From assembly GCA_951406725.2 (NCBI GenBank), contig OX597832.1, positions 71,610,001 to 71,674,000 on the forward strand: a DNA stretch of 64,000 nt, read 5' to 3'. Shown here one piece after another: positions 3,354 through 64,000 of the stretch. The notes beneath the pieces were generated by a model. The model was not told the origin of the DNA and made no database searches. It was given only the letters and a program-made list of their open reading frames with translations. The stretch comes from Octopus vulgaris. Its lineage: Eukaryota. Position 1 is the stretch's first letter, and each line of letters begins with the position of its first letter. The translations under genes were made by a program, and so were the position numbers.

Positions 3354-4144
3354 AATAAAAGGAATTCTGTAGAATCTTCGTTCAGCTCCATTTCTTCCCT
3401 TCACTAAATAAATATATATATATATATATATATATATATATATATATATATATATATATATTACTTATTTATAATCCACTGATGAAATCTAGAGATTCCC
3501 AGCATAGACGACTTTGTAGTGCTCAAAAGATTCAAACTCCCATTTCTTTACAGAGGATCAATTCCGCGGATAAAGAATAGCTATAAGAGGGGTCAAGTTC
3601 AGTGTATATAGAAGCAATTATGCAGTTAAACGAATTAGATACGTTGAATATAATGCTTCGGCTATGAAATACAAAATACGTATATACATACTAACAGAAA
3701 GAAAGCAAAGAGTGGAGACATTCAGACGACGAGTATTTAAATATAAATATATAGATATTTATATTGATAGATCCAACTAATGCAGTACAAATGACAGAGA
3801 AAATTAAAGGGGTGGAATAACGGTGTTATAAGTCTAACAGCTGCTTCTGGAGGTTGTGAGATCCATCATAACGCTAGATGTAGTTCATCACAATATGCGA
3901 CCGTAATGGAAGCAATCAATATTGGATAAGACGAGCCTCAGTCATCAAGGTAGAAAAGATCTTACAGTTCAGACCTTAATGCAGAGAAGTTCAAAGTTCA
4001 TAATTGCTTACACACACACACACACATATATATATACATACATACACACACACACACATATATATACATACATACACACAAACATATACATACATATATG
4101 TATATATGTATATATATATATATATATATTTATTATATAGAAGG

Positions 4145-4195
4145 AGCTTCTATAGGACTAGAACTGTTTCATTCAAGAGAAATCTTCAGGAAGCT
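4145..4195 (-). ncRNA. Hammerhead motif, family B (left arm; stem III substitution)
   Basis: Reverse complement of 10069-10119, with one change (GTA to ATA) that breaks a stem III pair. Confidence 0.6.
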
Positions 4196-7100
4196 AGTTA
4201 ACAAGAATTGTATTGGCATTTATACATTTAGGCAGGTTTAAAGGGGTGTTGGTGGGGGACTTTTTGGGGGTAGGCATAGCGCAAAATATCATACTTGGGG
4301 GAGTGGTCAAGGAGTCAGTGTTAAATTAGATAGAAGAATAAATAAAAAAAAAAATTTTTTTAAATTAAAATATATATATATATAAAAAAAAGGGGGGAAT
4401 AGAGTTTTAGGTAAATAAGGAGATTCTCACTTATACCTATGCACATATGTATACATATATACACACGCATACAAACATATATACATATACATACACACAT
4501 ACATACACACACATATATATATACATATATATACACTTACACATACATATACATATCTACACATACACATATATGTATACATACACACACTCACATGCAT
4601 ACACGTATACACACATGTATATATACACACACACGACCACACATACATATACACACAGAAAAATATATATACACATACACACACATACTCACATACACGC
4701 ATACACACACACATGCACACACAGCACACTAGTCCCTATATACACATATATACACATACACACATATATACACACACATACATATACATACACATACACA
4801 TATATATATATATATATATATATATATATATATATACATATATACATATGTGTACCTATGCATACCTACACATACACACATATATATATACACATACAAA
4901 TACAGACCCATCCCCTAATTTTAATTTTATTATCTTCGTTTATTACTTTTGTTATCTTTGGCCGCTTGGTCACAAACATCTTGGCTATGACAGCCAGTCC
5001 ATTTATCTGTCTACTGGAAAACAAGCACTCATTCACTCACGCACACTCTTTAGCACGTACACTCACTCATTCGTACACTCATACACATACACGCACGCAC
5101 GCGTTATATTCATACATACATACATCTACATACATTCACGTATATACACATACGTACGCGTACCTACAGATTCATGTCTACACTCTTAGAAGGCTAGTCT
5201 ATCCATATACACCAATAAATATAAATACACACACATACACGTACACCTACATACAAATACATACATGTATATATATATATATATATATATATATATATAT
5301 ATATACATACATATATATATATTCACATATATATACACATATATACATACACATACATACATACACACATATACACATATACACACATATACACATATAT
5401 ACACACATACACATACATACGTATACATACATACATACATCCATTCATCCATACATACATACATTTATACACATACACACACCCACATACATACATATAT
5501 ATACGCGCATATATATATCTATATATATATATATATATACATATACATATATACATATATACATATATATTCATACACACACATACATATACATACATAC
5601 ATATACAAATATACGCACACACATACATACATACTCATATACTCATACACGCACATACACATGTACATGCGTACCCATACACACACACACACATGCGCGC
5701 GTCCATATATACACATAAGTACACCCATGCGTAAAAGTATACATATATCTATGCTTACACATACACACACACACACGCGCCTCCTTATATTCATACTTAC
5801 ATGCATACTCAAAAAATAAGTAAATAGTAAAATATATATACGCGCAGTTATTCATACATGCATACTCAAAAAATAAATGATAAATAATAAATATTAAGTG
5901 TATGTACGTGCAGTTACCTATTATATAGACGGATACATACATATAAACTTACACACATAGATATATATATATATACATATATATATACATATATACATAC
6001 ACACACACACATATATATATATATATATATATATACATATATATACATATATATATATATACATACATACACACACATATATATATACATACACATACAC
6101 ACATACACACATACACATATATATATATACACATATATATATATATACATATACACACATATATATACATATATATACATACACACATACACACATATAT
6201 ACACACACACACATACATACATATATATATATATACACACACATACACACACACACACACACACACACACACACACACACACACACACACACACACACAT
6301 ATATATATATATATATATATATATATATACATACTTACACATGTACATATAAATACACACATAGATAACTCTACGTACCTACATATACATAAACACACGA
6401 GCGTACGCGTATATGTACATATACACATACACATACACACGCATATATATACATACATACATACACATACACACATGTATACACACACACACACATACAC
6501 ACACATATATATACATACACATATATATACATATATATATATACATATATATATATACATATATATATATATATATATACATATATATATACATACACAT
6601 ACACATACACACACATATATACATGTGTGCAAACATACATACATTCTCATACAAGCACACGCACTTACATTTACATATATACACACACTTACACACATAT
6701 ATACATACACATGTACATACATACATACATACGTATATGCATACATACACACACACACACACATATATATACATATATATACATACATACATACACAAAC
6801 ACATACCCATACATATATATACACACATATATATATACACATGCACATACTTATAACTCTACATACTCGCATATACATATATATATATATATATATATAT
6901 ATACACATATACACACACATACATATACCTATATACATGCATATATACACATACATATATATACACATCTACAATTTGTATCTACACTCACATACCTGCA
7001 CATACACATAACTCTACATACCTACATATACATCGACATACTCGCGTACACTCATATATATACACATATATACATATACACACACACATACATATACATA

Positions 7101-61400: not shown

Positions 61401-61593
61401 GGAAATCCGTTGGAAAAAACAAAAACAGAACAGAGGCGGAGCAAAACAAATCGAACTAGGCTCCTAAGAGCCCATGGCAAAACTAGGCTCCTAAGAGCCC
61501 ATGGCAAAGGGTTTTGCCATGGGCTCTTAGGAGCCTAGTTCGATTTGTTTTGCTCCGCCTCTGTTCTGTTTTTGTTTTTTCCAACGGATTTCC

Positions 61594-61686
61594 TATTTCT
61601 TCCTGAAGAGAAAGACACAATATGGTCCCATTATTCAATCGGATTTTGGTAAATTGTGCCTTTCGAAACACGTGTAGAATGAAATA
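61594..61686 (+). ncRNA. Type I hammerhead motif, family A
   Basis: TATTTCTTC/GAA(T)GAAATA 9-bp bulged stem I, CTGAAGA, 12-bp stem II, GAAA-CACGTG-TA. Confidence 0.8.
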
Positions 61687-64000
61687 AAACGATTTCTGTT
61701 CAATCTTCGTTCAGCTCCATTTCTTCAATTCACCAATATATATATATATATATATATATATATATATATATATATATATATATATATATATATTTATATA
61801 TATATACACATACATATACATATACCACAAAAAATAACAAGGAAAAAGTTTTTATTTTCCATTCCCTTTGAAAAGTGGTCTTAATTGTGGTTTTGGTCGT
61901 TTTCACTGCTTCTTCTAGCATGTGAAAATTAGCTGTTAAAGGTAGTTTTCTCTTGTGTTTAAATGTACACTATTTGATACATACATATACATATATATAT
62001 ATATATACATACATATATATATATATATATATATATATATATATATATATATATATATATATGCATACACACATATATATATACATATACATATATATTG
62101 TATTGTATTGTATTGTATTGGCATCCTTTCTGTCTCGGGAGACAATGGAGTTGCGCATGAAGTAGTCTAGTCCGGCTTTTATATTTCATGTCCTGATACA
62201 TTTCCTGCTGTGGCTGTGTAGTCCTATCCTGGACACTCCCTCTGGCAGGTACCGCAAATGTAGCGAAGACTGTTCCTGGCTGGAACAGTCTTCGCTACAT
62301 ATATATATATATACATACATATACATATATATACATATATATATATTCCTATGCATACATATACATACATATACATATATATATATATATATCTTTATAT
62401 ATATATATATACATATATATATGTATACATATATATACATACACATATATACATATACATACATATATATACATATGCATACATATATATATGTATATAT
62501 ATATATAGATAGATATATATATATGTGTGTGTGTACACACAAACACACACACACACACAGTCACACTTACATGATGGACATCTTTAAGTTTGTGCCTTTC
62601 AAATCCATTCACAAGGCTTTGGTCATTCTTGTGTGTATGTGTATCTCACTAATGTATATCCTTGGACAGATGTACAAACAGTGGGAAAAGTGGTAAACTC
62701 GTGCCTTCAAAGAGAAATAAAGTGGATATAATATGTTGTGGCAGAGTTGTACTGACTTCCCTTGTCACTCCTCCTATTGGAAATACAGCAAAACATTGGA
62801 GTGGTTCGCAGGAAACTCATAACAATACTATTGTTCATAAAATGAACAAATAAATAAAACACAATAAAGATATGAATATTAAAAAATACAAAAACATACA
62901 AAAAGCTCCCTTTCATCTCTGTCATCTGTAAAGTTAAGGTTAATAGAGTAAAAAATTATTGTCGTGTTAATAACAATTCATCACAAAGATTTAGATATTT
63001 AAGAAATTTTGTTTTTTAAAGAAGCATAAAAATAAAAAAATAACTTTAACTTATTTAAGTTAATTGATCAATTAATTGATTTATTGACTCCATAATTGTG
63101 TTAGAAATTGTCAAGATGTTGTTTTAGCATATCTTTGAATAACAATGAATTCCTGCATCTGCACCAGTCTTTGTTTTGGTTGAAAGGAATGGTAGGTGGT
63201 GGGGAGGGTCTATCTTGACTTATGGTATGTCTTCCGCATTAAAATCTTAGGAAGCCCATCCTTCTCCAACTCTGACCACCATTGATACACTCAAACAGGA
63301 TATGTATGAATACAGACACAAAAACACCCATACATATAGTTTTATATATATAGGTATATATATATATATCATCAACATTTAACATCCATTTTCCAAGCTG
63401 GAATGGTTTGGATGGCTTGACAGGAAATGGTAAATCCAGGGGCCACACCAAATTCCATAGTCTGTTTTGGCTTGCTTTCTACTGCCGGATGCCCTTCATA
63501 AGTGATCAATACTTATGCAACTGTCCTCATCTATCCACATCACATGATCAAACCAGCACAGTCTCCTCTCTTGCACTCTGCATACAATTCCTTTTATGCT
63601 AACCAATGCTCCATCACACATGCACACTGACACCTCACACCCAGCAGTATATCAATTTTAAGAAACGCCCCCACCACCACCACCTCCAGCAGCAAGAGCA
63701 ACTGCAGAATCACACCCAGAAATACCAGAACTGGGACCAAAGATAGAAACACCAATGGTAGTGAGACATCCAGTGCAGAGATATGGAAATATATTAGTTC
63801 ATCCAGAACTCCATTTAAGCCATGCCTGTACAACCACAGACTCTCATTTAGGATACCAGAGAGGTACAACATCATGCCCCTGGCACCTAAAAGAGGAATA
63901 AACCACATACATAATCAAATGTAAGTTCCTTGAGTAACCAGGGCCTTATATAAATGGAAGAAAATGTTGTAAGCTTTGCTTGACAGAGAGAACAAGAATC

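Follow-up and report, generated by a model that had tools for sequence, protein, structure and literature searches.

Inverted-arm, probably Penelope-like insertions in an octopus (TA)n-rich locus and a twin bulged hairpin in related Hydra-type loci

Introduction

How do retroelement insertions of different sequence come to share one lopsided shape, with two inverted arms and a tail on one side only? The question is raised by a stretch of 64,000 nucleotides (nt) of the Octopus vulgaris genome (GenBank assembly GCA_951406725.2, contig OX597832.1, positions 71,610,001 to 71,674,000 of the forward strand; this whole stretch is called the window), which has a GC content of 33%, is rich in (TA)n and holds nine such elements, those of a first-pass annotation, numbered here E1 to E9 from left to right. 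The annotation presented them as a system of their own; however, the layout was already present in the work of Craig et al. 2021 (PMC8557442), Cervera and de la Pena 2014 (PMC4209133) and Arkhipova et al. 2013 (PMC3846280), and is a known signature of Penelope-like elements (PLEs), not a new class. According to Craig et al. (2021), PLE insertions have an inverted 5'-truncated copy, a one-sided tail of 30-40 base pairs (bp) and a (TA)n target. The making of the tails and inverted ends is treated as an open question in that paper, to which Frangieh et al. 2024 (PMC11167929) gave a partial answer in vitro.

With a probability of about 0.8, we take the nine elements to be 5'-truncated insertions of several PLE families, in which the inverted half was built anew at each insertion. 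The new part is a twin bulged hairpin found in related loci of the Hydra clade of PLEs, close to the points where their insertions end.

Results

One layout and copy-specific fold points

Comparison of the window with itself showed inverted arms and a one-sided tail in all nine elements, as had been described (Table 1). All of them were present, with the correction that E5 begins at about 38632 and not at 39041, its 409-nt tail having been missed, and (TA)n flanks them in general, being degenerate to the left of E2 and to the right of E6. The elements had been called mostly unrelated in sequence, which does not apply to E4, E9 and the single-armed E0, as these form one family. The middle between the arms measures 0-53 nt in six of the nine elements, and E7 has none. 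It belongs to the tailless arm in E8, as shown by the open reading frame (ORF), to the tailed arm in E6, as shown by the strand of the hammerhead, and probably to the tailless arm in E2, judging from base skew. Re-copied patches were found at the centres of E3, E4 and E9, that of E9 being 26 nt long, and E6 has received a dispersed repeat at 40909-41331.

The inverted left end of E8 occurs twice, with the same start and different truncation, and is followed by a 5'-truncated sense copy. In this doubled tailed end (51019-51611), 292 nt are identical and the arm is truncated at 88 and 79 nt; the doubling may stem from priming twice at the same place or from duplication of the local sequence. E3 to E7 (36273-42520) form a chain with only (TA)n between the members, as if each insertion had provided the target of the next one.

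E4 and E9 are 96% alike and have the tail start and the tailless end in common, and they fold about 550 and 230 nt in, respectively. Within each copy the arms are 99-100% identical, whereas the two copies differ by 4%, the variants of E9 being present in both of its arms; therefore, both arms are likely to come from one template, or were homogenised later. When contigs of four public runs were compared with half of E4, the family, including its tail, was found in all four runs and was abundant; a search with the exact E4-family motif gave no metagenome matches. In runs X2, X3 and X9, loose ends at 37971 continue with a further unit of the internal repeat of the family, past the fold of E4, and three contigs of X3 turn back near 37581-37592, which represents a third fold. 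The tail start is preceded by (TA)n in 22 contigs of X2. The centre of E4 (37976-38040) is left uncovered by the contigs; this gap was not used as evidence, nor was contig depth used for ranking. As the fold points of E4, E9 and the public contigs all differ within one family, the palindrome was likely built at insertion and did not move as a unit.

A coding copy of the Hydra type

The ORF remnant of E8 begins abruptly inside the reverse transcriptase (RT), which is joined in this single ORF to a C-terminal GIY-YIG endonuclease, the arrangement of endonuclease-bearing PLEs. It aligned to full-length relatives across the end of the RT, the thumb and the endonuclease; the ORF at 51577 had its best relative in an Octopus sinensis protein (94% identity), and Pfam gave no match. 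The linker reads CNCRNKNKC, CSLC and CIH surround the conserved E and N, and no internal CCHH is present; a CxCX5C linker, CxxC and CxH are marks of the Hydra clade according to Craig et al. (2021). E8 is truncated before the region of the N-terminal Hydra motifs, which were found in relatives (RWK and DKT in P0002, RWR and DKT in P0004). The truncated copy is already 4.1 kilobases (kb) long, beyond the <3 kb that is typical, not strict, for the clade. Judged by its predicted protein, E8 is a Hydra-type PLE. The PLE origin, the hammerheads, the (TA)n targeting and the link to GIY-YIG PLEs through the coding copy, all proposed earlier, are supported.

The hammerhead of E8 lies 2.1 kb past the stop codon, in a non-coding 3' region of 2.4 kb, so a stub of this family would look non-coding. 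A search for longer proteins bearing the E8 endonuclease found none, and another search returned 4199 clusters. Elsewhere in the window, an older Hydra-type remnant at 10858-11792 is also inverted, with an endonuclease end (11019-10858, minus strand) beside a truncated RT (11044-11792, plus strand), and a Hydra-type endonuclease fragment lies at the window edge (63794-64000).

Hammerhead motifs in the elements

Hammerheads were searched with a descriptor scan, with 100 block-wise dinucleotide shuffles of the window as a control. Twelve type I hammerheads were detected in the window and none in any shuffle, so that they are commoner than in shuffled sequence, as the first-pass annotation required. 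A stricter scan, with stem II capped at 40 nt, gave no hammerheads and was replaced by the wider descriptor; among the best 150 of 507 matches of an Rfam search of the window, mostly TA-repeat noise, there was no hammerhead family. Eight of the nine elements carry a hammerhead near the 3' end, E2 having none; a remnant considered in E2 was rejected, at least four changes being required. E3, E4, E7 and E9 have a hammerhead in each arm, and a single intact one is present in E1, E5, E6 and E8; counting E1, one of whose two copies is mismatched, these are the five elements said to have hammerheads in both arms. The U4C core of E3 is a known weakening variant. In read-through RNA of the whole palindrome the hammerhead core was predicted to be fully paired in all four folds, which argues against self-processing units.

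A twin bulged hairpin in Hydra-type loci

From metagenome contigs, 78 loci encoding Hydra-type proteins were obtained (the best 80 of 395 confirmed). A hammerhead follows the ORF in 35 of the 78, with stem II closed by U.U (15), G-C (14), G-U (3) or A-U (3). The U.U closure, the oddity of E1 and E3, thus recurs in these loci, and is present in 14 of the 25 Hydra families when counted from File S2 of Craig et al. (2021).

Two copies of a motif lie between the hammerhead and the start codon of these loci. Each consists of GCTC, an inner stem with its loop, a 2-nt bulge, GAGC and then ACT (GCTC..YY-GAGCACT), and both copies, hairpins 1 and 2, were found in 28 of the 78 loci at a spacing of 55-83 nt. 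When every GAGC was matched to its nearest GCTC, pairing across a 2-nt bulge was seen in 78 of 79 distinct copies (C-G in 53, T-A in 23), compared with 1, 1, 11 and 28 copies for bulges of 0, 1, 3 and 4 nt. In 80 aligned copies, 91.8% of the cells pair, and covariation was 0.346 against 0.126 in shuffles (0 of 500) and at most 0.126 when the pairing was slid.

The published Hydra-2_Amil consensus contains hairpin 1. An Rfam search of 15 of the 78 loci gave no match to the hammerheads or the hairpin, and the main text of Craig et al. (2021) does not mention the twin hairpin. A literature search found no description of the motif, although Repbase notes, subscription papers or supplements (e.g. 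those of Frangieh 2024 and Cervera 2014) may hold one. The twin hairpin is a real feature of sequence and structure, apparently undescribed, for which we infer a role below.

Two full-length Hydra-type copies (L007:311-555 and L014:2990-3102) start after (TA)n just before hairpin 2, which suggests a unit bounded by an outer start on either side. Further Hydra-type copies, oppositely oriented, are marked by minus-strand hairpins at L003:2523-2672, L032:2985-5450 and L073:1621-1708.

Most mappable insertion ends fall just before a hairpin

Twenty-six downstream copies were aligned to a two-hairpin reference, and 12 of them, from about nine families, could be mapped; nine that reached the contig end, four whose reference was <80% identical and one that continued a tandem were set aside. 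In eight of these 12 the end is no more than 4 nt ahead of a hairpin, four of them (tailless) lying 0-3 nt before hairpin 1 and four (tailed) 0-4 nt before hairpin 2; one further end lies 12 nt before hairpin 1 and another 16 nt before hairpin 2. Both types of end occur within one family (L038 and L040), and L073 reproduces the layout of the window: its inverted copy stops about 5 nt ahead of hairpin 1, its sense copy ahead of hairpin 2. A TA step is found 6 nt before hairpin 2 in 15 of 27 cases and before hairpin 1 in 10 of 24.

The hairpin in the tails of the window

A search of the window with a covariance model built on the motif gave three matches, the best being 42446-42482 in the tail of E7 (13 bits, E value 0.5), and detected no hairpin in the tails of E1-E6, E8 and E9. 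The ACTC/GAGT of E7 represents a compensatory pair, and its hairpin is formed in the minimum free energy (MFE) fold. The loose 3' half of the motif occurs six times in the window, two of them in the tails of E7 and E1. Compared with shuffles, the tails of E8 (z -3.1) and E4 (z -2.4) fold better, into other shapes, and those of E1, E2, E6 and E7 fold no better. Hydra-style end features are a hammerhead plus a tail hairpin in E7, a hammerhead plus a damaged hairpin in E1 and a hammerhead alone in E3. The twin hairpin is tied to this window by E7, and weakly by E1, only.

Table 1. Positions and properties of the elements, hammerheads and related features of the window. Tail lengths are counted after the shared end; middle lengths are approximate.
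Feature	Position	Strand	Arm identity	Tail (nt)	Middle (nt)	Details
E0	3007-3411	+				One arm only, no tail; related to E4/E9 (83%); stem III of its hammerhead (at 3274) is changed
E1	4128-10205		99.1% over ~2.9 kb	69	42	Arms 4128-7132 / 7175-10136, largely low-complexity TG/CA-rich sequence; tail 10137-10205
E1 mirror hammerhead	4189-4151	-				Single stem III mismatch, at 4153
E1 hammerhead	10075-10113	+				6-bp stem I; stem II closed by U.U
E1 tail motif	10144-10165	+				Damaged, hairpin-1-like; one stem mismatch; 8 nt after the tailless end
E2	31262-32237		98%	80	437	Tail 31262-31337; arms 31338-31548 / 31986-32239; no intact hammerhead
E3	36273-37090		99.7%	26	40	Tail 36273-36298; arms 36299-36674 / 36715-37090
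E3 hammerheads	36476-36442; 36913-36947	-; +				U4C core, U.U closure
E4	37236-38539		99.3%	159	53	Tail 37236-37390; arms about 37391-37940 / 37994-38539; centre a patchwork
E4 hammerheads	37526-37453; 38408-38481	-; +				
E5	38632-39289		100%	~409	3	Palindrome 39041-39289; tail 38632-39040
E5 hammerhead	38862-38793	-				In the tail, outside the arms
E6	40328-42091		86%	106	1420	Older copy; tail 40328-40433; arms 40434-40556 / 41976-42091
E6 hammerhead	40659-40566	-				
E7	42290-42520		100% over 79 nt	73	0	Perfect palindrome 42290-42447; tail 42448-42518
E7 hammerheads	42356-42327; 42381-42410	-; +				Stems I and III match Hydra-2_aMil
E7 tail hairpin 1	42454-42478	+				Hydra-type; ACTC/GAGT for GCTC/GAGC; 3-nt bulge; 6 nt after the tailless end
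E8	51059-55717		99%	173	4030	Coding; inverted end copies 51059-51319 and 51360-51611; tailless end at 55717
E8 ORF remnant	51613-53295	+				End of RT, asparagine (Asn)-rich inserts, CxCX5C linker, GIY-YIG-type endonuclease with CxxC and CxH
E8 hammerhead	55418-55521	+				Long stem II, 2-bp stem I, palindromic stem III
E9	61101-61738		100%	155	27	Arms 61256-61483 / 61511-61738; tail start as in E4
E9 hammerheads	61391-61318; 61603-61676	-; +				

Other elements in the window

A second PLE, of another type, which we take to be Neptune-like, occupies 56300-59163 (minus strand), with a Pfam GIY-YIG match and, by eye, a CxxxxCxxC linker and CCHH; its 1.2-kb TG-rich 3' region resembles the arms of E1, and no hammerhead was found in it by the scan. 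A repeat of 188 nt, presumably SINE-like, forms a tail-to-tail inverted pair at 60685-61065, 88% alike, in which 17 of the 21 differences are transitions and no hammerhead is present. LINE-like fragments at 32227-33145, 42778-43522 and 50160-51068 (93% and 67% alike) end at (TA)n, two of them adjoining E2 and E8. The window also contains a LINE with endonuclease, RT and zinc finger (16142-21351), the pol of a long terminal repeat (LTR) retrotransposon (25295-27950) and a Tc1-like transposase between 238-nt inverted ends (44521-45288).

Discussion

The layout of the nine elements could be produced by the following steps. The element protein would cut (TA)n and both DNA ends would prime reverse transcription, as occurs in vitro in a lizard PLE. 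One end would start at an inner site of the RNA, X, and the other at an outer site, Y, the ends being fixed in each family, so that the arm started at X would lack the X-Y stretch, i.e. the tail. In Hydra-type elements, X and Y would lie just 5' of the two hairpin copies, as in the related loci, and each hairpin would dock one enzyme subunit; the strand primed before hairpin 2 would copy the tail, and that primed before hairpin 1 would not. The two complementary DNAs (cDNAs) would then meet head to head. Where the middle is long, they may have been joined end to end; where it is short, one cDNA may have snapped back or both may have run off the same broken RNA, and the six near-perfect palindromes need one or other of these coupling steps. 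The non-coding look of most copies would be due to long 3' untranslated regions, with the hammerheads carried along. The re-copied patches at the element centres fit template switching.

Priming on both target strands allows either arm to be the long one, as is seen, and is needed because the long middle lies in the tailless arm of E8, and probably of E2, but in the tailed arm of E6. For this same reason, the single fold-back mechanism put forward for all elements in the first-pass annotation could not be maintained. The tail would likely represent the spacing between two enzyme docking sites, which matches the two start sites found in vitro in another PLE. For the Hydra clade we go a step further, and with a confidence only slightly above even: its RNAs may bear an undescribed twin docking signal made of the two bulged hairpins, each of which would position one RT subunit, with one strand primed before each, so that a short RNA with both hairpins would direct two-ended (TA)n insertion and the hairpin spacing would be the PLE tail.

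Several results weigh against this interpretation. None of the eight non-coding elements could be joined to a PLE ORF by sequence, the public contigs being too short for this, and seven of the nine tails, including that of the coding Hydra-type E8, are without the twin-hairpin motif. The E7 match is weak on its own at its E value, and the tail of E7 runs 7 nt into a possible hairpin 2 instead of stopping ahead of it; the mismatched motif of E1 was missed by both the covariance model and the MFE fold. Among the related loci, the four outer hairpin pairs are nearly invariant, show no covariation and are uninformative on structure, many of the 78 loci are closely related, a kinship that inflates the pairing and covariation counts, and two of the 12 mappable ends (L004 and L015) fall inside the hammerhead. 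With its hammerhead in the tail, E5 has a tailless end away from the usual site. TA microhomology at the tailless ends of the window was not significant (16 against 9.3 expected, p 0.08) and is suggestive only.

A pure snap-back, in which a cDNA from the tail end folds and copies back to X and a single strand is primed on RNA, is the alternative that survives best, and we regard it as unlikely. It would account for arms identical within a copy, for a middle of no more than 53 nt in six of the nine elements and for the patchy centres, and Arkhipova et al. (2013) take junction palindromes as the result of self-priming. However, under this mechanism the middle should always be part of the tailed arm, whereas in E8 4 kb, ORF included, belong to the tailless one, and it leaves unexplained the single-armed tailless copies (E0; L024 and L038) as well as the presence of a hairpin at both ends.

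Less likely still, some palindromes or arms might be non-autonomous, retrozyme-like elements that move as units, an idea left open by the first-pass annotation and now disfavoured. The lack of a PLE-like ORF in E1 (3-kb arms) and E4 (550 nt) and the abundance of the E4 family in all four runs are compatible with it, and an origin of animal retrozymes in PLE ends is put forward in a 2026 preprint (bioRxiv 10.64898/2026.07.22.740005). Against it, the three fold points of the E4 family differ and the family continues past the fold of E4, the hammerhead core is predicted to be sequestered in the full-length RNA, and E8 shows that 3' regions of 2.4 kb are possible in these families; nor does the window contain head-to-tail units with a hammerhead each, the arrangement of retrozymes. 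A linear non-autonomous family is possible. An artefactual origin of the palindromes, as fold-back chimeras of long reads or as misassemblies, is very improbable, for although the arms of E5, E7 and E9 are 100% identical and no contig spans the junctions of the window, substitutions and indels separate the two arms in E1, E2, E4 and E6, each family has tails and ends of its own, which E4 and E9 have in common, E6 bears a later insertion, a fold of the E4 family was seen in independent contigs and L073 shows the same layout.

Two-ended priming with an inverted half made at each insertion is, then, the explanation we prefer. The window is a dense example of the known PLE layout and is useful chiefly for repeat annotation. 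A short covarying RNA element beside each end makes the choice of start site directly testable, and the twin hairpin can serve as a marker by which non-coding stubs are recognised as members of the Hydra clade.

The PLEs of Craig et al. (2021) resemble the present elements in the inverted truncated copy, the tail at one end, the (TA)n target, the hammerhead near the 3' end and the CxCX5C linker; they include an octopus Hydra family, Hydra-1_Obim, and Penelope-13_HM, with hammerheads on both strands. Tails are 26-173 nt long here (409 in E5) compared with 30-40 in that study, and E8 differs from its Hydra elements (<3 kb) in the Asn-rich inserts and the 2.4-kb 3' region. Recently active PLE families are listed in an annotation of octopus repeats from 2026, whose passages on them leave palindromes unmentioned.

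In Schistosoma, Cervera and de la Pena (2014) described opposite-strand hammerhead pairs 100-700 bp apart, which were taken as truncated PLEs. The minimal PLE hammerheads of that work share with ours the short stem I, the palindromic stem III and the opposite-strand pairs, whereas the stem II regions of E4, E5, E6, E8 and E9 (49-83 nt), the U.U or A.A closure of E1, E3 and E7 and the U4C of E3 set the present ones apart. The Penelope elements of Adineta vaga (Arkhipova et al., 2013) also show palindromes at inverted junctions and Asn-rich ORF inserts; they have a low copy number and target-site duplications, which are not readable here in (TA)n. Non-LTR retrozymes (bioRxiv 10.64898/2026.07.22.740005) are likewise non-coding, PLE-related and provided with type I hammerheads, but form head-to-tail arrays, unlike the head-to-head pairs with copy-specific folds of the window.

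The closest mechanistic parallel is Poseidon PAc of the green anole, a PLE of another clade, for which Frangieh et al. (2024) reported in vitro that both strands are cut and extended, with two starts of reverse transcription and the tail between them. Two-strand priming, the two starts with the tail between, the AT-rich target and a predicted dimer are points of likeness. PAc starts in an AC-rich stem loop without homology to the target, whereas in Hydra-type elements the starts would fall on a TA-rich patch, on the 5' side of two distinct copies of a repeated hairpin.

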